Shown one piece after another: positions 24,786 to 33,195 of a stretch of 64,000 bases of DNA (position 1 is its first letter; every line of letters starts with the position of its first letter). The notes beneath the pieces were generated by a model. That model worked only from the letters and a program-made list of their open reading frames with translations. It did no database searches and was not told the DNA's origin. The stretch is from an uncultured Nitrososphaeraceae archaeon. Lineage in GTDB: Archaea > Thermoproteota > Nitrososphaeria > Nitrososphaerales > Nitrososphaeraceae. The stretch is from NCBI GenBank assembly GCA_963729045.1, contig CAVSMN010000020.1, forward strand, positions 182,080 to 246,079, given 5' to 3'. The position numbers were made by a program, and so were the translations under genes.

Positions 24786-25724
24786 TCAGAAAGGTTCTTC
24801 ATGCAGTAATGCGGACAATAAAGCTGCCCTTAACTCTTTTCCGTAAGCAGCTTGTTTAAAATAAAGAGCATTCACAGTATTATCAATTGATGGAGATATT
24901 TCATCAACTCTAGGTAACGGATGTAAAATAGAAACATCAGGTTTTGACTTTTTCAAGATATTTTCATCAATAGTATACAATCCTTGAATTTTTTTATATT
25001 CTTGAAGATCCGGAAATCGTTCTCTTTGGATACGTGTTACATATATCACGTCTAATTTTTCTAACAAGTCATCAGATAATTCAATATGATGATACATTTT
25101 TACCTTAGTTGAGATATCGTATATCGATTCACTTCGAACTTTTAGTACAGATGGAGAAACAAGATGAATTTCGACTTTATAATTAGATAGGGCATAGATT
25201 AGAGAATATACCGTACGGCCATACTTTAGATCTCCTATTATTCCAATAGATAGACCATCAATTCTTTTTTTTTCTTTGAATATGGTGTAAATGTCCAACA
25301 TAGCTTGAGTAGGATGTTCTTCGCTACCACTACCTCCATTTATCACAGGTTTTTCTGATATTTCACAAGCATATCTACTCGAACCATCGGAAGGATGACG
25401 TATTAAAATGATATCGGAGTATAATGAGATGGTCTTAATGGTATCAGCATAACTTTCGCCTTTCATGATAGATGAAGAATCCACATCTGATATTCCCAAA
25501 GATCTGCCCCCAATGGAGGACATAGCAGATTCGAAACTTAACCGGGTTCTAGTACTATACTCATAAAAAATATATCCAAGAATTAAGCCTTTTGCGATTT
25601 CTCCACGCTCTCTAGATTTCAATGTTCTTATTTTATCAGTAATATCAAAGAGAAAAGTAAAATCATCTATATTGAAATCGCGAATGGACACTATATTGCG
25701 ATTAAAAAATCTATTTTGAATCAT
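24786..25724 (-). CDS. pyrB: Aspartate carbamoyltransferase catalytic subunit
   Basis: STRTRLSF, HPTQ, GDLKYGRT and HPLPR motifs. Confidence 0.97.
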   Translation of the reverse strand: MIQNRFFNRNIVSIRDFNIDDFTFLFDITDKIRTLKSRERGEIAKGLILGYIFYEYSTRTRLSFESAMSSIGGRSLGISDVDSSSIMKGESYADTIKTISLYSDIILIRHPSDGSSRYACEISEKPVINGGSGSEEHPTQAMLDIYTIFKEKKRIDGLSIGIIGDLKYGRTVYSLIYALSNYKVEIHLVSPSVLKVRSESIYDISTKVKMYHHIELSDDLLEKLDVIYVTRIQRERFPDLQEYKKIQGLYTIDENILKKSKPDVSILHPLPRVDEISPSIDNTVNALYFKQAAYGKELRAALLSALLHEEPF

Positions 25725-25789: not shown

Positions 25790-28543
25790 TCATCCTGAGC
25801 CACAACTACTAAATCCACATTCAATGCACATATTACAGCCTTCTGTAATAATTAAGTAATTTTTACAAACTGGGCATGCTTCTTTATCGCTTTCTGTTCT
25901 TGTAAGAGTGTATGGGTCAGGTTTGGTAGTAATTGATACAGTATTGGATTCAAAACTATTAGGTTCTAGTTGGTTATCGACTGTATTAGTTGCTACGGCA
26001 TATTGATCACTTGATTCATAATCCTTAAAAATTGGATTTACCTGATCAAGAACATAAGGTTCATGTATGTTTGTTAAAATATAATCATGCAAATACATAC
26101 TTGGTTTAACTTGGAATCTTTTTTCACGATCATTACCAGTAATATGTAAAACTTGTTCATTCCTAGAGCCATCTCTATAGATAGTCACCCCTTTTAATCC
26201 AAATTCATGAGCAAGTAGATATGCACATTTTACATCCTCAACCGTAACATCTCCAGGCATGTTGATTGTTTTTGCAATCGCGTTACTGATCCATTTTTGC
26301 CACACAGCTTGAGCCATTATATGATCGGTCCAATGAATATCTATGGCCGTAACAAATAGCTTTTGTATCCATTCAGGTATTTCATTTATGCCACGAACGG
26401 ATCCGTAATTATTTGCAATTTTTATCAAAATTTCATCAGTGTATAATCCATGTTCTTTCAAAACATTCTCAAAAATCTTGTTTGTATAGAAGAACCTACC
26501 AACAGTAACACGTTTTTCAAACACCAAAGCAAAAACAGGTTCAACACCATTAGATACATCCGAAATCATTGATAAAGTACCAGTAGGTGCGATAGTAGTA
26601 GTCCATGAATTCCTGATTCCATAGTTTTTAATTTTTTCTATTAAGGAGTCCCAATCATAATAATGTGAATCCTTAGGGATCTCATGGTAACCCGACAGCG
26701 GAATATCTCCATTCTTATACTCAGTCTGATCAAATAACGGGAAAGCACCTCGAGATTTTGAAATGACAACACTTTCATCCATACTAAAATACGACAAAGT
26801 TTCAGCTAGTTTACTCATGAATTCATATCCTTCCTTTGAATCATAGGGGATTTGTAACATGAATAATAAGTCTGCTATACCCATAATCCCCAATCCTATT
26901 CGCCTGGTTAGTTTTGTATTGATATCTATTTCCTCTACAGGATATTTATTGACGTCAATAACATTGTCCAAAAATCGTGTAGCTGTTCTAATGGATTGTT
27001 CATATTTGGGCCAATCAAATTCATACATTCCATCTGCTTTTCGTTTTACAAATTTGGATAAATTAATGGATCCGAGATTACAGGACTCACATGGATACAA
27101 GGACTGTTCGCCACATGGGTTAGTTGCTCTAAGTGGTCCCCCTTTGGCATCGATGCAAGGATTGTATTTATTTATATTATCAAAAAATATGACACCAGGT
27201 TCAGCGCTCTTCCATGCACTCAATGCTATTAGCTCCATTAATTGATGAGAATCGATATTTTTCACATTAGCCTTGGTTCTGGGATTTTTCAGAGAATATT
27301 TATGATCCGCTTTATTTACTAATGATTTCCAAAAATCTGACCAGATACCTACACTTACGTTAAAATTTTCATACATCCCTGGTTTAGTTTTCATTGTAAT
27401 GAATTTTTCGATATCTGGATGCCAAGATTCCAAAATACCCATATTTGCGCCACGCCTTTTTCCACCTTGTTTAACTACGTCTGTAATTGAATCGATAATT
27501 TGCATAAAAGAAGTTGGTCCAGATGCAACACCACTAGTAGATGCAACTATATCCCCTTCGGGCCTTAAGTCAGAATAATTTATTCCAACACCTCCTCCAG
27601 ATTTAAAAATCATTGCTGCGTCAGTGGATGATTTCATAATAGAATACATATCATCAGGCATATCAAGAACAAAACAGGCAGATAGTTGTCCCAATCTGGC
27701 ACCAGCATTCATAAGAGTTGGCGTATTAGGAAGAAATTCATTAGAAACCATCAAATTGTAATATTCCGTTATTTTGTTGCCATAATTGCTCATTTTTCCT
27801 TCTGCAATCAATCGTAAAAGTTCTTTAAAGCTTAACTTCATTCTTCCCAGTTTGGCCTCATCAATATATGATCTGATTAATGCTTCAAAATGATATTTAT
27901 TAAAATAATAACTTCCAATTTTTAACTTGCTATCGAAATCGTCTAATTTTTTATAATATAATTCTGCTTCAGATAAAGTCTGTGTATGATTATTGTGAAA
28001 ATCATAAACTCGAGAGTCATGAATAATATCCGATATAGCAACCAATATTGCGACTCGTTCAAATAATTGCTTTGGACCTTCGATAATTTCACCACTATTA
28101 TCCCTCAATAAATATCTTGAAGACAGAACACGCAGAGAATTGACATCCAGGGTTTTATCCACTTCGTCAAGATCTTTTTTATTTAAGATCTTCATTTTCA
28201 TTTCCCTTAATTTTCTTCTTTCATGACGATATAGGATGTAAGCCTTAGCGGTCTCAGCCAGACCTTCTTCAATTAAGATTGATTCAACCATATCTTGAAC
28301 ATCTTCGACGCTCAAAACATGATCTCTATGAATGGACTCCAAGTATCCATTTTTAATAATTTTATTTACCAATTTTGATGCAAGTAATTCAGCCAATTTA
28401 TGATCGGGTTTACCAGCTGCAACCAATGCTTTGTAAATTGCATTCGATATTTTTGATTGCTCAAAATCCACTATTGTACTATTTCTTTTTTTAATATGTA
28501 CAATGGTTTTATTTTTTGAATCATGAAGATCAGTTTCAGCCAT
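25790..28543 (-). CDS. nrdJ: Class II (adenosylcobalamin) ribonucleotide reductase with N-terminal ATP cone
   Basis: ATP cone, PNTPTLMNAG, TNPCGEQ, CNLGSINL, IAPTGT, C-terminal zinc ribbon ending SSC. Confidence 0.95.
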   Translation of the reverse strand: MAETDLHDSKNKTIVHIKKRNSTIVDFEQSKISNAIYKALVAAGKPDHKLAELLASKLVNKIIKNGYLESIHRDHVLSVEDVQDMVESILIEEGLAETAKAYILYRHERRKLREMKMKILNKKDLDEVDKTLDVNSLRVLSSRYLLRDNSGEIIEGPKQLFERVAILVAISDIIHDSRVYDFHNNHTQTLSEAELYYKKLDDFDSKLKIGSYYFNKYHFEALIRSYIDEAKLGRMKLSFKELLRLIAEGKMSNYGNKITEYYNLMVSNEFLPNTPTLMNAGARLGQLSACFVLDMPDDMYSIMKSSTDAAMIFKSGGGVGINYSDLRPEGDIVASTSGVASGPTSFMQIIDSITDVVKQGGKRRGANMGILESWHPDIEKFITMKTKPGMYENFNVSVGIWSDFWKSLVNKADHKYSLKNPRTKANVKNIDSHQLMELIALSAWKSAEPGVIFFDNINKYNPCIDAKGGPLRATNPCGEQSLYPCESCNLGSINLSKFVKRKADGMYEFDWPKYEQSIRTATRFLDNVIDVNKYPVEEIDINTKLTRRIGLGIMGIADLLFMLQIPYDSKEGYEFMSKLAETLSYFSMDESVVISKSRGAFPLFDQTEYKNGDIPLSGYHEIPKDSHYYDWDSLIEKIKNYGIRNSWTTTIAPTGTLSMISDVSNGVEPVFALVFEKRVTVGRFFYTNKIFENVLKEHGLYTDEILIKIANNYGSVRGINEIPEWIQKLFVTAIDIHWTDHIMAQAVWQKWISNAIAKTINMPGDVTVEDVKCAYLLAHEFGLKGVTIYRDGSRNEQVLHITGNDREKRFQVKPSMYLHDYILTNIHEPYVLDQVNPIFKDYESSDQYAVATNTVDNQLEPNSFESNTVSITTKPDPYTLTRTESDKEACPVCKNYLIITEGCNMCIECGFSSCGSG

Positions 28544-28778
28544 ATAACATTTATATATTATTTATAGATCGTTTATATTAATTTCGATAGCTTATTTTAT
28601 AAATTAGCGAGTTTCAAATAAGAACTTACATCCAGGCTTAAAGTATACCATATGTAATAGACAGTCGTATTATAATGGACTGGTATTAAACAATTATGAA
28701 TAATCTAACAGATATACAAAAAAATGACTAAAGGACTAAATGGATGGAGTTTATTCAACATGTGCTGAACAATGGATA

Positions 28779-30830
28779 TTAGTTAAATGTGACAATATTT
28801 CGAGATCCACATATAGAACAAACATCACTACTAGCCACTCGAGTTCCGCATATAGAACATATGCGATTCTCTTCAAATATATCAAAGTAGGGGATAAAAT
28901 TAGTGGATTTTTGTATCAATTCCACCATTTCCTGAGTAGGAACATCACTAGTGAGTAGTTTTACGTACAAACCTCCAGCCATAAGATTATCCAATTCAAT
29001 TAGATTTCTAGATAATGAATCTTCATCATCAAGCATTTTTTTGGTAATAACTAGTCCTTGTGAATATGATCTAAAATCATGAGTCAGTTTACCAAATTTC
29101 TCGGAATCGAGGTTAACAAATCTTGTTGAACTAGAATCATTTATAATGGAAACGCCAAATTTGTCTGTGTTATGTTGGCCGAAATCAATTAGGACGTCAT
29201 TAGCCGTTTTAACCACTTTCTTTACAATATCAAATCCCACATCTTTAGAAAATCCCAAAATATCATGAATAGATTCATCTAATCCAGTCAAGTTAACGAT
29301 TATAGAAGTAGAACCCAATTGTGGAAAGCCCATAGTATGGGATAGAGCAGGTAATATATCTTGTCGAATGTTTTCTAATAATATCTCCTTCTTTAGTAAT
29401 AAAGTACTTACTGAGGGCCTCATTAACAAGGCTAATTTAGTCCTAAAATAGGTTTCATCTTTATTTGATTGATAAGCTAAACGGGGCAAATTTATAGAAA
29501 GGGAATGTAGTGCGACGATCGGCAACCCCATATCTTGATGCATCTTATGAATACCTCTACTACTACGAACCGATTTTTGTGAGAGAGATATTCGACCACC
29601 TAACTTTATGATCTTTGTAAGAAGGGACAACAAGTCATTAGATAAAGAATTTGCAAAAGTTATAAAAAGTCCAAAATTGGGCAGAGATACTTGCTCTATA
29701 TAAGACAAATATCCACTTAGCATTTGAAGCAAACGCTCGCTATTTTCATTTCCACTCAAAACTAGCGTTATAAATGGAGATCCTGCATACTGCATTGAAA
29801 CAGAAGATGAAATCAGTGAAAATGAAAAATATTCAGATATTTTATCAATAGCATAATCACCAAAAATTTTATCGATGTTTTCTATGACTATCTCTCTGGA
29901 AACCTCTCTTTGAAGTAATGAAACCATGATAGGCAATGTGATATTTAATTTATGAGCATGTGTATTCCTAGGTAAAAAAAGAAAATGGCTTTTGAGATTC
30001 AAGTTCTTGTTTACTTGCTCGATATCAACAAAAATAGTATCAGCGCCTATACCCCAATGACCTAATGCATCTAAATGAACCTCACCACTATAATGCATAT
30101 CCATAATATCTTTTTGAAAATTATTTGCAAAATAATCAGAAAAAACTTTTTCCGAAATATCTGTAATTAGGTCATTTATGCCATTTCTTAATGAATTATC
30201 ATTATGATGGAATTTTTTATTTAAGTCAAAAATGGGAACTCCGATTCTAATTAACTTATTCATTTGTTCCTCTAAACCATGTTCTAACAATACATTATTT
30301 ACACAATCTCTTATTAGTCTAGATGTCAAGTAAGAGGTTGAGAGTTTATATATTTTATTTTCCACCTCTTCAGTAATTTTTGTAGCTTGTTCTAATGACA
30401 TATTTGCTTCTCTAACCAAGGATTGAATTATTTTGTGTGGATTGAATTCTTCGATGGTTTGATGGCTGGTTCTAACATACATTTTCCCACTTTCAATTAT
30501 AGACTTTTCTTCTATCTGTCTAGCCAAGTTTAACACCAATTTACCTAGATTAGTAATGGTATACCTCCTTTCACCCTTATTTAGACCTACCAATGATTGT
30601 CTCAATAGTTTTCTTAAATGATATGCAAATTTCCCAGATTCTTTCTTTGATTTAAATCCTGCTAGTGATTTTAATTCAGAGTAGGTTAGAGGTCCTTTAT
30701 TATTAAGAATGCGCAAGATATCAATTCGATTAGGACTGGCCATTACTGAAAAAATCATTCTTACTCGTTTGGATGTGGATTCCAAAACTCCGCGTTTAGT
30801 TTCGGATGGGGGCAGATATGTATACCTCAA
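28779..30830 (-). CDS. ArsR-like HTH + ATP cone + degenerate class III RNR (NrdD-like) fusion protein
   Basis: PNRIDILRIL..LTYSELK..FAYHLRKL HTH; VRTS..EEFNPHKIIQSL ATP cone; HYSGEVHL, SINLPRLA and terminal CxxC-x9-CxxC; no glycyl-radical loop. Confidence 0.85.
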   Translation of the reverse strand: MRYTYLPPSETKRGVLESTSKRVRMIFSVMASPNRIDILRILNNKGPLTYSELKSLAGFKSKKESGKFAYHLRKLLRQSLVGLNKGERRYTITNLGKLVLNLARQIEEKSIIESGKMYVRTSHQTIEEFNPHKIIQSLVREANMSLEQATKITEEVENKIYKLSTSYLTSRLIRDCVNNVLLEHGLEEQMNKLIRIGVPIFDLNKKFHHNDNSLRNGINDLITDISEKVFSDYFANNFQKDIMDMHYSGEVHLDALGHWGIGADTIFVDIEQVNKNLNLKSHFLFLPRNTHAHKLNITLPIMVSLLQREVSREIVIENIDKIFGDYAIDKISEYFSFSLISSSVSMQYAGSPFITLVLSGNENSERLLQMLSGYLSYIEQVSLPNFGLFITFANSLSNDLLSLLTKIIKLGGRISLSQKSVRSSRGIHKMHQDMGLPIVALHSLSINLPRLAYQSNKDETYFRTKLALLMRPSVSTLLLKKEILLENIRQDILPALSHTMGFPQLGSTSIIVNLTGLDESIHDILGFSKDVGFDIVKKVVKTANDVLIDFGQHNTDKFGVSIINDSSSTRFVNLDSEKFGKLTHDFRSYSQGLVITKKMLDDEDSLSRNLIELDNLMAGGLYVKLLTSDVPTQEMVELIQKSTNFIPYFDIFEENRICSICGTRVASSDVCSICGSRNIVTFN

Positions 30831-30912
30831 CTACAAAGAGCAGTCTTATTATTAGTATATAAATAAAACTATCGGTCAGGATAAGGATAAGATGCTCTGG
30901 TTTGATGAGAAC

Positions 30913-31563
30913 CTAGCTTTCTAACAACACTTGTCCGCTGTTAAGTATATCATCCTTTAAATTAATACTAGGTCTCTTTGAAATGACAGAAACTGGAACT
31001 TCGGGTAGTTTTTCTTTTGCCTCGTCTTCCAAACTATTTTGAACATCACTTAATATGGCCAAAGCATCTTTATCGATCACAGATGCTATTTTACCAGCAT
31101 CGGTGTCAATATTAGAATTAATTAATACATCACCAGTTAGTGTATGAATGTCATTCAAAACATCAGTTGCAGACGGAACAGCCTTTGAAAGATCTTTCTG
31201 AATATCTTGGAGCATTTCTACAGTCGGATTAATTGTATCCATAATAGTTGAGAATTCGGTTATTGTGGTGAATCGGATTGCAACGACTTCTAAGGCCGTT
31301 GTTGCATTGTGAGTGTTCTTTCTAAGTCTTCTCATAGCAGATAACTCATTTGCAATGATATTTGCACGTGCATTATTTCCTGATTTTATATTTTGAGTTA
31401 TTTTGGAGCTAAAATTAGCATCAATATTAGAAAATTTTTTATCCATTAATTTGAGTTGCGAAATTTGCGTATTTATCACAGAGATAGCGCTGTTAACATC
31501 ATAATAGAACTGGCCACTTTTTTCCATCAAATCATCAGTAATCAGGACATTTGTTAAAAACAA
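30913..31563 (-). CDS. ESCRT-III/Snf7 family protein (CdvB paralog)
   Basis: Helical Snf7 pattern ARANIIANELSAMRR..ALEVVAIRFTT, C-terminal KEKLPEVP. Confidence 0.75.
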   Translation of the reverse strand: MFLTNVLITDDLMEKSGQFYYDVNSAISVINTQISQLKLMDKKFSNIDANFSSKITQNIKSGNNARANIIANELSAMRRLRKNTHNATTALEVVAIRFTTITEFSTIMDTINPTVEMLQDIQKDLSKAVPSATDVLNDIHTLTGDVLINSNIDTDAGKIASVIDKDALAILSDVQNSLEDEAKEKLPEVPVSVISKRPSINLKDDILNSGQVLLES

Positions 31564-31623: not shown

Positions 31624-32019
31624 CTATTGATATTTTTGCAATATTAAACCATGTTTTTCGTGGAAATCAATCACTTTGATTTTAGAACCCAATGGTAGAT
31701 CAGAAGGTGAAGATATTCCAGGCAGAAACCCGGAAACATTTATGTCACAATCATCTAATTTAAAAATAACCCAAGCATACGAATTGACATCTTCAAATCC
31801 TTCTGGTGCTACTGCTTGGATTGTAAATGTTACAACTGTGCCCTTACCGCTGTATGATATTTGTTTAAAAGAGCTAGAAAAACATTTATCACAATAATAT
31901 ACGGTTTCTAATATAATATTATGGCATTTATTGCACTGATTAAGAATTATGTTCCCATTCTTCGCAAATTCGATGAACCGGTCTCGGGAGCTTTGATTTT
32001 TTGACTTTGATTGGGTCAA
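31624..32019 (-). CDS. DUF35 Zn-ribbon/OB-fold thiolase partner
   Basis: CNKC..CDKC, GKGTVVTFT; directly downstream of thiolase. Confidence 0.9.
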   Translation of the reverse strand: MTQSKSKNQSSRDRFIEFAKNGNIILNQCNKCHNIILETVYYCDKCFSSSFKQISYSGKGTVVTFTIQAVAPEGFEDVNSYAWVIFKLDDCDINVSGFLPGISSPSDLPLGSKIKVIDFHEKHGLILQKYQ

Positions 32020-32034
32020 TTACAATATCACCGT

Positions 32035-33195
32035 CTATTTTATTTTCTTGAATATATGTACAGCTGCGCTAGCCCCGGTAGCACCAAAATTATGAGTCAT
32101 GGCTATCTCAGCATCTTTAACCGTTCGTTCTCCAGCTTTATTCGTAAATTGTTCAAATACTTCTACAACTTGACCAACACCAGTTGCTCCTATTGGATGA
32201 CCTTTAGATTTTAAACCTCCAGATGGGTTAACAGTAATATCGTTATTTAATCTGGTACGTCCTTCTCTAACAGCCTGAGCAGCAGATCCCTTGGGAAAGA
32301 ATCCTAGATCTTCGATGTCTATTAATTCGGCAATGGTAAAACAATCGTGCACTTCAACAAAATCAATATCTTTTGGAGACAGATTTGCCATTTTATAAGC
32401 TTGACGGGATGCTTCAACGGTACTTGGAATCGTGGTAATATCTTTTCTAGATTGGACTGAAGCGGGTGATGCACCCCTACCTGAACCCACTACTTCCATA
32501 TACGGATTTCCGCTTTTTTTTGCGAATTCCTCATTACATAGTATGACAGCTGAGGCACCATCAGAGAAAGGACAGCAATCATATAACTTTAGTGGAGATG
32601 CGACCACAGGAGATTTTAACACATCTTCTATAGTAATTTTCTTCCTAACATGGGCTTTTGGATTAAGAAAACCATTTTCATGATTTTTAACAGCGACTCT
32701 AGCCAGATCCTCCTCTGTCGCTTTATAAGTAGCCAGATATGCTCTAGCCATCGAACCAAAAAGACCGGGAAATGATGCTCCGTTACCCCCCTCATAAAAA
32801 AAATCAGAACAATAGGAAAAGAGTGTTGTGCTTTCAACTGTACTGGTATGAGTTACTTTTTCAACCCCCAGTGCTAAAACACAATCATAAAATCCAGCAG
32901 ATACATTTGCAAATGCTTCTCTAAACATTACAGAGCCAGAACCACATGCAGATTCAATAGTAAGACCAGGTACATCAGGGATCCCAAGGTTACTCATAAT
33001 TACCGGAGCCATGTGAACCTGTTTATCAGCCACACCAAAGACGTTTGAAATATATCCTGCTTTCACGTCTCTTGGAGTTATACCAGCTGATTCAATGGCA
33101 TCTCTTGAAGCATTCAAGGCTATCTCAATAATACTCTCATGTAATTTGCCATACTTTGTACTGCCAGCACCAAGTACATAGACCTTTTCACCCAT
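32035..33195 (-). CDS. Archaeal acetyl-CoA acetyltransferase (thiolase)
   Basis: ESACGSG, EVHDCF and GHPIGATG motifs. Confidence 0.95.
   Translation of the reverse strand: MGEKVYVLGAGSTKYGKLHESIIEIALNASRDAIESAGITPRDVKAGYISNVFGVADKQVHMAPVIMSNLGIPDVPGLTIESACGSGSVMFREAFANVSAGFYDCVLALGVEKVTHTSTVESTTLFSYCSDFFYEGGNGASFPGLFGSMARAYLATYKATEEDLARVAVKNHENGFLNPKAHVRKKITIEDVLKSPVVASPLKLYDCCPFSDGASAVILCNEEFAKKSGNPYMEVVGSGRGASPASVQSRKDITTIPSTVEASRQAYKMANLSPKDIDFVEVHDCFTIAELIDIEDLGFFPKGSAAQAVREGRTRLNNDITVNPSGGLKSKGHPIGATGVGQVVEVFEQFTNKAGERTVKDAEIAMTHNFGATGASAAVHIFKKIK

Follow-up and report, generated by a model that had tools for sequence, protein, structure and literature searches.

R, a working name, is a 683-residue protein encoded in the window, the 64,000-nt stretch of DNA from an uncultured Nitrososphaeraceae archaeon analysed here. 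It combines a winged helix-turn-helix (wHTH), an ATP-cone and an apparently dead body related to NrdD, the class III ribonucleotide reductase (RNR). As a first-pass annotation of this DNA had stated, the R gene lies directly upstream of, and is co-oriented with, an intact class II RNR gene, nrdJ (TIGR02504, 744 bits), from which it is separated by a spacer of 235 nt. The features of the locus, in window positions, are as follows.

24786..25724, minus strand: aspartate/ornithine carbamoyltransferase gene (pyrB-like; OTCace_N and OTCace), co-oriented, downstream of nrdJ
25790..28543, minus strand: nrdJ, class II (B12-dependent) RNR, 917 aa (PF02867 500.8 bits, TIGR02504 744 bits), presumed target of R
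28544..28778, minus strand: R–nrdJ spacer, 235 nt, whose nrdJ-proximal ~110 nt (28544–28653) are nearly invariant among close relatives
28779..30830, minus strand: R gene, open reading frame with TTG start, 683 aa; domains by Pfam, homologues found
28809..28859, minus strand: zinc site CxxC-N9-CxxC of R (C658, C661, C671, C674), the only invariant Cys in the homologue alignment
28881..30233, minus strand: NrdD-like α/β-barrel body of R, aa 200–650, without catalytic residues (profile against the PDB, AF2, Foldseek)
30246..30482, minus strand: ATP-cone of R, “VRTS” type, aa 117–195 (PF03477 44 bits, cut-off 25.8)
30495..30755, minus strand: ArsR-like wHTH of R, aa 26–112 (Pfam DUF7347 / HTH_20)
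30831..30880, minus strand: putative R promoter region, with an AT-rich TATA-like stretch at ~30856–30868

The TTG start of R and about 50 nt 5' of it are kept in 21 of 21 metagenome relatives, including those whose protein identity is as low as 60%, and the sequence diverges further upstream; residues 10–29 are conserved at the protein level in the homologue alignment. The near-invariance of the nrdJ-proximal spacer was found by comparing six relatives of 91–95% R identity that hold nrdJ. In relatives of 60–65% R identity the spacer is 53–79 nt long, with a short common core just upstream of the start. NrdJ bears its own canonical ATP-cone (65 bits), the only one in this genome besides that of R (PF03477 scan). 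A Snf7-family gene lies directly upstream of R in the window and in close relatives, and mevalonate-pathway genes flank R in both Nitrososphaeria and Bathyarchaeia. RNA-library contigs from four runs of four studies cover nrdJ almost fully and R partly, a presence of sequence that does not amount to proof of transcription. Those with the 5' part of R continue into the Snf7-family gene. The spacer is bridged by no contig of the four runs, the nrdJ contigs ending at 28502–28536, which does not show separate transcription of R and nrdJ because contigs cannot reveal transcript ends.

Domains, catalytic residues and predicted fold of R

The wHTH is recognised by Pfam at residues 26–100 (DUF7347, 40.2 bits, cut-off 27.6; HTH_20, 28.3 bits, cut-off 27), and the NCBIfam model HTH_metalloreg reaches 22.3 bits, under its cut-off of 55. 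PF03477 matches residues 117–190 (E 3e-11; 49.2 bits in the genome scan) and the NRDD family PF13597 residues 408–678 (55.3 bits, cut-off 26.2, E 6e-15). This last match covers profile positions 260–531 of 562 and thus stops short of the glycyl loop; with the NCBIfam NrdD model R reaches 54.5 bits, far below the cut-off of 326. R contains five Cys in all, C176 in the ATP-cone and the four of the zinc site, which align to C644, C647, C662 and C665 of E. coli NrdD. R has retained this site as well as the NLPRxA motif. Mean pairwise identity among 13 Nitrososphaerales homologues falls from 95% in the HTH (minimum 92%) through 82% in the cone and 52% in the body to 40% in the tail; by this measure the putative DNA-binding head is the most constrained part of R.

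The thiyl-radical Cys of class III RNRs lies on the finger loop, at C384 in E. coli, C330 in T. maritima and C290 in T4, and the glycyl-radical motif RVxGY holds G681 of E. coli. The thiyl-radical Cys is absent from R, which has no Cys between residues 177 and 657, and the RVxGY motif is likewise missing, the protein ending 9 residues past the last Cys of the zinc site. All 13 sequences in an alignment of the window R protein with 12 homologues end within ~9 residues of that Cys. In a profile alignment against the PDB, the position of T. maritima C330 (SCCRL) is occupied by Ile or Val in the R family. Among 100 R-family representatives, a Cys at the position of E. coli C384 is found in 2, a Gly at that of G681 in 3, and both in only 1, so the family, too, generally lacks the pair of residues that the first-pass annotation had found wanting in R. 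The HxHD motif, described in PMC11226230 as binding the substrate triphosphate in class III RNRs, is intact in 1 of the 100 representatives and reads VHLD in the window protein. The same annotation had remarked that no gene for the activase NrdG lies nearby; in a profile scan of the whole genome (2.85 Mb, 87% complete, so that absence is unproven) no NrdG model reached its cut-off, the best scores being 43.8 bits against 131 for TIGR02495 and 35.1 bits against 126 for TIGR02491. R is the only PF13597 match of this genome. Judged by its sequence, R is homologous to class III RNRs but catalytically dead, and not an enzyme, as had been proposed at first sight.

In a profile search of the PDB the R body matched NrdD of T. 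maritima (E 5.5e-8) and T4 (E 4.9e-5); in single-sequence searches the whole protein gave NrdD at E ~0.6 and the cone alone nothing beyond chance matches. The AF2 model built from a 98-row alignment (pLDDT 88.7, pTM 0.82), which supersedes a poor one from 13 sequences (pLDDT 52), has class III RNRs without exception as its top Foldseek matches (E 6e-20). The predicted fold is thus confidently that of a class III RNR with the catalytic residues missing, in agreement with the earlier reading of the letters. The R body is also predicted to pair (ipSAE 0.81 against 0.00 for the best control, partner pLDDT 85, three runs agreeing in at least 85% of contacts); in calibration, 20 of 30 homodimers of solved structure and 1 of 23 proteins with a single-chain structure came up to this ipSAE mark. 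Since solved structures of NrdD dimers exist, the pairing score may simply echo the likeness of R to NrdD.

In a gap-free alignment of the cones, T121 and S122 of R occupy the positions of K7 and R8 of E. coli NrdD, with R120 just before them. These two positions hold Thr-Ser in 69 of the 100 representatives and Lys-Arg in none, and the preceding Arg is present in 96. Lys7 and Arg8 are among the phosphate-neutralising residues described for P. copri NrdD in PMC11226230. An alternative register may apply, in which a two-residue-longer hairpin would place R120 on the canonical Arg. The first-pass view that R keeps its nucleotide-binding sites fails for the substrate site, whose motif is broken, and finds no support in the cone, where Thr-Ser stands for Lys-Arg; because of this change, sensing of ATP/dATP by R is only presumed in what follows.

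Distribution, gene order and origin of the family

A census of 151 Nitrososphaeria genomes found R in 136 of them, and in 108 of the 110 that are of high quality. In the ammonia-oxidiser order (families f1–f3) it lies directly upstream of nrdJ and co-oriented with it in 81 of 87 genomes, or 80 of 86 without the unpublished genome G132. The two genes are adjacent and convergent in 8 of 9 genomes of family f4 and in 1 of 2 of f12, and unlinked in families f7 and f9, where the listed matches are on different contigs; these orientations were read by eye from two match tables. Longer dead relatives are widespread in Bathyarchaeia. An invention of the family within the Nitrososphaerota is excluded, the family being older.

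Among the Bathyarchaeia loci with at least 2.5 kb of sequence downstream of R, an RNR gene is found there in 21 of 53 (16 nrdD-like and 5 nrdJ), and R is unlinked to an RNR gene in the remaining 32. The 15 NrdDs translated from these downstream genes all retain the CC finger loop together with the glycyl motif SR[VI]xGY, and the VRTS cone is present in 6 of the 15; the nearest intact relatives of R are Bathyarchaeia NrdDs with this same cone. Where no RNR gene is adjacent, pyrB or pyrI adjoins R in 8 of 16 loci, pyrB in Bathyarchaeia being mostly convergent with R. In a quick IQ-TREE analysis of 53 rows the R clade has a support of 99 and the short forms (support 100) branch from within the long ones, which suggests one origin for the family. 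The gene order first seen in the window is therefore that of most f1–f3 genomes, and linkage to an RNR gene extends across two archaeal classes. Part of this adjacency may be old synteny, because pyrB and mevalonate genes also belong to the conserved neighbourhood.

Searches for an operator

In 795 kb of Bathyarchaeia sequence, an 18-nt motif has 31 sites of at least 12 bits in the 700 nt that follow the R stop and 12 in the 300 nt that precede the R start, with 9 at other positions. The sites upstream of R were not among the seeds of the motif, and at 12 bits they are present in 12 of 80 loci only. The motif is a candidate operator in Bathyarchaeia; given its T-run and its TATA-like half, it may also be a core promoter or terminator element. 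The complete Bathyarchaeia chromosome G151 has no motif of at least 9 bits at its unlinked class II RNR gene, and only a half-site-like stretch upstream of that gene. The matrix is not enriched in the Nitrososphaeria loci, with 2 occurrences in spacers, 1 upstream of R and 12 elsewhere.

In Nitrosopumilaceae, a Gibbs sampler yielded, upstream of nrdJ, a conserved block of ~30 nt (about −105 to −70). Of 30 loci, 24 score 16 bits or more with its matrix, which was itself built from 16 of these loci. Upstream of R the block stays at background level in 30 of 30 loci (at most 7.8 bits; background maximum 11.1), and it is missing from the window and from three other Nitrososphaeraceae loci. As an operator of R it was rejected. 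Its 15-nt IUPAC form occurs at about chance frequency in 5 complete genomes. Identical extra copies of this 15-nt motif fall inside a tRNA-synthetase gene. The k-mers common to the R and nrdJ promoters are AT-rich words only, and a shared R operator in the window's lineage was found neither by Gibbs sampling nor with the Bathyarchaeia matrix nor by k-mer comparison.

Proposed role and related systems

The domains of R, its loss of catalytic residues, its fold, its conservation and its gene-order link were computed here; DNA binding, targets, direction of control and effector are what we infer. The reading that we favour, with moderate confidence, is that R is an RNR-derived pseudo-enzyme transcription factor, functionally analogous to NrdR of bacteria. 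It would go back to an ancestral class III reductase, composed of ATP-cone and NrdD, that was duplicated in an ancestor common with Bathyarchaeia. The duplicate would have acquired an N-terminal ArsR-like wHTH and shed its radical chemistry, and in the oxygen-exposed Nitrososphaeria R would later also have dropped the remnant of the glycyl-radical domain. The NrdD-like body would keep R dimeric and thereby pair two HTH heads. These would bind at or near core promoters, namely that of the RNR gene (nrdJ in this case) and, in some lineages, that of R itself. DNA binding would be tuned to the nucleotide pool by the ATP-cone and perhaps also by the former specificity site, which would lie at the dimer interface. 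Control of nrdJ transcription by R we infer from gene order only. A bolder version, tentative and on balance doubtful, has R read the nucleotide pool through two inherited allosteric sites, the VRTS cone (ATP versus dATP) and, at the predicted dimer interface, the specificity site of NrdD (dNTP balance), as the general RNR regulator of Thermoproteota lineages devoid of NrdR, born from duplication of the gene that it controls. If true, a whole allosteric enzyme would have been converted into a gene switch.

R might instead bind DNA as the regulator of additional or other genes (for pyrimidine synthesis, replication or the cell cycle), its adjacency to RNR genes being mostly inherited gene order. 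Such a role, which we consider quite improbable, would suit the neighbours of R, namely pyrB or pyrI in half of the RNR-less Bathyarchaeia loci and pyrB after nrdJ in the window, the mevalonate-pathway genes in both classes and the Snf7-family gene. It would also suit the unlinked loci of Bathyarchaeia and of families f7 and f9 and the missing 18-nt motif at the unlinked RNR gene of G151. However, the gene immediately downstream of R and co-oriented with it codes, in two archaeal classes, for an RNR of one class or the other, pyrB is mostly convergent with R in Bathyarchaeia, and R descends from an RNR and retains an RNR-type ATP-cone. It is very unlikely that R works mainly by contact with other proteins, such as NrdJ, whose partner or allosteric modulator it might be, with the HTH serving for tethering or in some other role. 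ATP-cone-driven oligomers are described as regulating RNRs (PMC11226230), both R and NrdJ carry ATP-cones, and the R body has the size and the conservation expected of a folded protein; yet the most conserved part is the HTH and not the body, and a protein partner would not be constant, because the Bathyarchaeia neighbour is often a class III enzyme. That R should still be an RNR with some unfamiliar chemistry, or the product of a recent truncation or assembly error, is scarcely credible. The database name, the zinc site and the NLPRxA motif would fit an enzyme, but the barrel Cys, the glycyl loop, HxHD and an activase are lacking, and these organisms also carry an intact nrdJ. Active RNR, local truncation and decaying pseudogene are all rejected because of the conservation of R, the ending shared by 13 of 13 aligned homologues and the presence of the gene in 136 of 151 genomes.

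As a regulator, R would most resemble NrdR, described in PMC9110341 and PMC12176259 as a bacterial RNR-specific repressor of ~150 aa with a Zn-ribbon and an ATP-cone. In both, a DNA-binding domain is fused to an ATP-cone and the gene is linked to RNR genes, and by analogy the logic would be shared, nucleotide binding to the cone setting DNA binding. Where NrdR has a Zn-ribbon, R has a winged HTH; R also carries a whole dead reductase of ~480 aa, and its cone, being of the VRTS type, lacks the canonical Lys-Arg. The two proteins are analogous and homologous in the cone only. A TIGR00244 scan for NrdR in the genome of the window gave nothing above 18 bits, the best match being in another gene than R, and the N-terminus of R contains no Zn-ribbon. 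With NrdD, R shares the homologous PF13597 body, the fold, the Cys4 zinc site, the N-terminal ATP-cone and, in the model, a predicted dimer through the helical face; it differs in the missing glycyl loop, thiyl Cys, HxHD and activase and in the extra wHTH. An enzyme-derived transcription factor is also known in NrtR, in which a Nudix-like effector domain is joined to a winged HTH (PMC2330246). Here, too, a metabolic enzyme fold is kept as sensor or scaffold, fused to a wHTH and mis-annotated as an enzyme, whereas the enzyme fold, the domain order and the pathway are others, NrtR is bacterial and there is no homology.

No description of the R family was found in the literature, and R is probably an undescribed switch for DNA-precursor supply. 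To our knowledge, the control of RNR genes in archaea is largely unknown. The RNRdb paper reports NrdR in only 6 archaeal entries (PMC2795772). R provides a near-universal, strongly conserved candidate RNR regulator in ammonia-oxidising archaea, also present in Bathyarchaeia, and would make archaeal RNR control testable with one recombinant protein and two promoters. Should the regulator reading hold, as seems somewhat probable, R would clearly exemplify the duplicate of an enzyme that has come to regulate the gene from which it arose. Ammonia-oxidising archaea are major nitrifiers, and an annotation error that makes these aerobic organisms seem to encode an oxygen-sensitive “anaerobic RNR” is widespread and is corrected here. 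As the first-pass annotation foresaw of automated pipelines, databases label the homologues of R “anaerobic ribonucleoside-triphosphate reductase”, a name that can mislead metabolic reconstructions.

Architecture and neighbourhood of the pseudo-reductase gene

The gene R encodes a winged helix-turn-helix (HTH) domain, an ATP-cone and a part related to the class III ribonucleotide reductase (RNR) NrdD. It lies directly upstream of nrdJ, the class II RNR gene, in the same orientation and with a spacer of 235 nt, and a pyrB-like carbamoyltransferase gene comes after nrdJ.

25790–28543, minus strand: nrdJ, intact class II reductase with a canonical ATP-cone (TIGR02504, 744 bits)
28779–30830, minus strand: R, open frame of 683 aa with a TTG start
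R residues 26–100: ArsR-like winged HTH (Pfam DUF7347, 40.2 bits; HTH_20, 28.3 bits)
R residues 117–190: ATP-cone (Pfam, 44 bits)
R residues 408–678: second half of NRDD, the class III reductase family (Pfam, 55.3 bits)
30913–31563, minus strand: Snf7-family (Cdv/ESCRT-III-like) gene, directly upstream of R

The first-pass annotation had described this open frame, its domains, its ending at a zinc site and the downstream nrdJ, and was right in every point that could be checked. The NRDD match spans positions 260–531 of a 562-position profile, so the glycyl-radical loop is not reached, and R scores 54.5 bits against the NCBIfam NrdD model, whose cut-off is 326. Of its five cysteines, one (C176) is in the cone and four (C658, C661, C671, C674) form a CxxC-N9-CxxC site, after which only nine residues remain. 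Mevalonate-pathway genes flank R in both Nitrososphaeria and Bathyarchaeia (a thiolase and its OB-fold partner at 31624–33195, minus strand, in the window; HMG-CoA reductase in two Bathyarchaeia loci, L044:4535–5875 and L045:1559–2821), which suggests a conserved neighbourhood of great age. In L127–L147, metagenome contigs that are Nitrosocosmicus-like, R is likewise preceded by the C-terminus of the same Snf7-family protein.

Loss of catalysis, predicted fold and the ATP-cone

R was aligned with 12 homologues. No cysteine other than the four zinc ligands is invariant, and all sequences stop at most about nine residues past the last of them. A PDB search with the profile of that alignment retrieved NrdD of T. 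maritima (E 5.5e-8) and T4 (E 4.9e-5); Ile or Val stands opposite the thiyl-radical Cys330 of the former (SCCRL). A wider census comprised 100 representatives of 560–830 aa, drawn from the best 150 of 1370 matches and aligned to E. coli NrdD. Cys at C384 was found in two and Gly at G681 in three, both together only in P0178, which itself lacks HxHD. This substrate-triphosphate motif, named in PMC11226230, is whole in one of the 100, and all four zinc cysteines are kept in 76. The genome of origin (87% complete) gave neither a second PF13597 match nor an NrdG above cut-off. It is close to certain that R is a dead class III reductase and no enzyme, as the first-pass annotation had proposed; the substituted radical Cys, the match ending before the glycyl loop and the missing NrdG hit all bear it out. 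Its further claim that the nucleotide-binding sites are kept fails for the substrate site, which is degraded.

Modelling with 13 sequences as input gave a poor result (pLDDT 52). AlphaFold2 with a 98-row alignment gave pLDDT 88.7 and pTM 0.82, and the top Foldseek matches were without exception class III reductases, including those of S. thermophilus (9dca, E 6e-20), T. maritima (4coj), P. copri (8p28) and T4 (1h79), at 9–15% sequence identity. Judged from this model, the predicted fold is real. Two copies of the body (residues 200–683) are predicted to pair through helices at about 213–230, 279–309 and 333–347, with an ipSAE of 0.81 (best control 0.00), a mark that 20 of 30 solved homodimers attain, as does 1 of 23 proteins whose solved structure is a single chain. 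The contacts agree by at least 85% across three runs, with a partner pLDDT of 85. Because NrdD dimers have already been solved, the score may merely reflect likeness to them.

Although the cone matches its Pfam profile well, it is non-canonical: in a gap-free alignment, T121–S122 lies opposite K7–R8 of E. coli NrdD. At these columns TS is found in 69 of the 100 representatives and KR in none, and the preceding residue is Arg in 96. In the P. copri cone, according to PMC11226230, phosphates are neutralised by Lys7, Arg8, Arg87 and Arg91, and Tyr83 stacks the second nucleotide. A VRTS cone like that of R is present in 6 of 15 translated NrdDs encoded downstream of R in Bathyarchaeia (L043, L057, L060, L083, L092 and L101); in these six, apparently intact, VRTS replaces the canonical KR(D/N)G hairpin. 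No description of the variant was found in the literature. Since intact reductases carry the same cone, that of R is probably functional, and nucleotide sensing through this putative sensor is plausible.

Among 13 Nitrososphaerales homologues of R, mean pairwise identity is 95% in the HTH (minimum 92%), 82% in the cone, 52% in the body and 40% in the zinc tail. The best-kept part being the DNA-binding head, R is most simply read from this conservation as a DNA-binding protein. That it is a DNA-binding regulator tied to RNR genes we consider reasonably probable. RNR regulators bearing an ATP-cone are already known; R differs from them in having another DNA-binding domain and a whole pseudo-reductase, which is what would be new. 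A full-text search, with coverage outside subscription journals and supplements, returned no account of an HTH-cone-NrdD fusion, nor do the matching passages of PMC3019208, PMC2795772, PMC9531940 and PMC11226230 mention one.

Distribution and family history

R is present in 136 of 151 sampled Nitrososphaeria genomes (108 of the 110 with completeness of at least 90%) and nrdJ in 144. Gene order was compared by eye between two position tables. In the window's order (families f1–f3), 81 of 87 genomes have R immediately before nrdJ on one strand, or 80 of 86 without G132, which is flagged unpublished. The exceptions are G012 (adjacent, divergent), G100 (5 kb apart, divergent), G117 (2 Mb apart) and G064, G070 and G113 (separate contigs). 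The two genes are adjacent and convergent in 8/9 genomes of f4 and 1/2 of f12, and on separate contigs in f7 and f9 among the matches listed; matches in f5 are weak and at HTH level only (6/14 genomes). Genome G008 has, 6 kb from its intact R gene, a second copy of the HTH region (C1:1091136–1091393; 86 residues, 87% identity, three in-frame stops), probably a decayed partial duplicate. In some Nitrosopumilaceae, nrdJ matches fall in two pieces within frames of 1045–1266 aa (G053:C6:6567–10124, G084:C79:65114–68008), as expected of an intein; the distant NrdD representative P0251 contains an intein with a LAGLIDADG domain.

Many representatives of 700–800 aa share the HTH and cone of R but match far more of the NRDD profile (in P0163 up to position 562 of 562), and they likewise lack the thiyl Cys and radical Gly. 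They have at least 592 genomic relatives, the best 80 nearly all from Bathyarchaeia or Hecatellales metagenome-assembled genomes, so that the family is older than first assumed. Where the sequence continues for 2.5 kb or more downstream of R (53 loci), an RNR gene follows on the same strand in 21 (16 nrdD-like, 5 nrdJ); among the best 80 as a whole, many of which end early, it does so in 25. The finger loop with its CC and the glycyl motif SR[VI]xGY are kept in all 15 translated downstream NrdDs, and a small glutaredoxin gene precedes some of them. A scan of 42 neighbouring ORFs in 16 loci from Bathyarchaeia where no RNR gene adjoins R placed pyrB or pyrI beside R in 8.

In a quick IQ-TREE phylogeny rooted on E. 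coli NrdD (53 rows, excluding fragments shorter than 560 aa as well as the majority of the 100 representatives), R forms a single clade (SH-aLRT 99) with the intact Bathyarchaeia NrdDs outside it, and the short Nitrososphaeria forms (support 100) are nested within the long ones. The simplest history would be duplication of nrdD, gain of the HTH, loss of the chemistry and later loss of the glycyl-domain remnant.

Candidate operators and intergenic spacers

An 18-nt element with a consensus near GTACAGTTTTTTAAACAA was found in Bathyarchaeia. At a score of at least 12 bits over 795 kb, it gave 31 hits no more than 700 nt past the R stop, most of them at a distance of 17–19 nt, 12 hits 47–80 nt before the R start and 9 elsewhere. 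The matrix was seeded on nine downstream sites, for which the result is circular; the sites upstream of R and those in loci lacking an RNR gene are non-seeds. Because the element includes a T-run as well as a TATA-like half, it may belong to a core promoter or terminator that these sites share. One complete Bathyarchaeia chromosome was tested, and the element was absent at its unlinked RNR gene. The motif occurs twice, 17–18 and 77–78 nt past the R stop, in L052, L055 and L087 (8265–8360 in L087), and only the first copy is seen in L065; none of these four loci has an RNR gene downstream of R. The next large gene in L087 and L055 is a convergent pyrB, and L087 has an 85-aa Cys-rich ORF near the sites.

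No element common to the R and nrdJ promoters was found in Nitrososphaeria. In close relatives, conservation of some 50 nt ahead of the R start extends down to 60% protein identity, and that of about 110 nt before the nrdJ start is seen among relatives of 91–95% identity. RNA-library contigs (four studies) cover nrdJ together with portions of R, although such contigs neither prove transcription nor show where transcripts end; some extend from the 5′ part of R into the Snf7-family gene. In relatives of 60–65% identity the R–nrdJ spacer is only 53–79 nt, and in L137 it contains a tandem duplication of the AT-rich element of about 25 nt that precedes nrdJ in this group.
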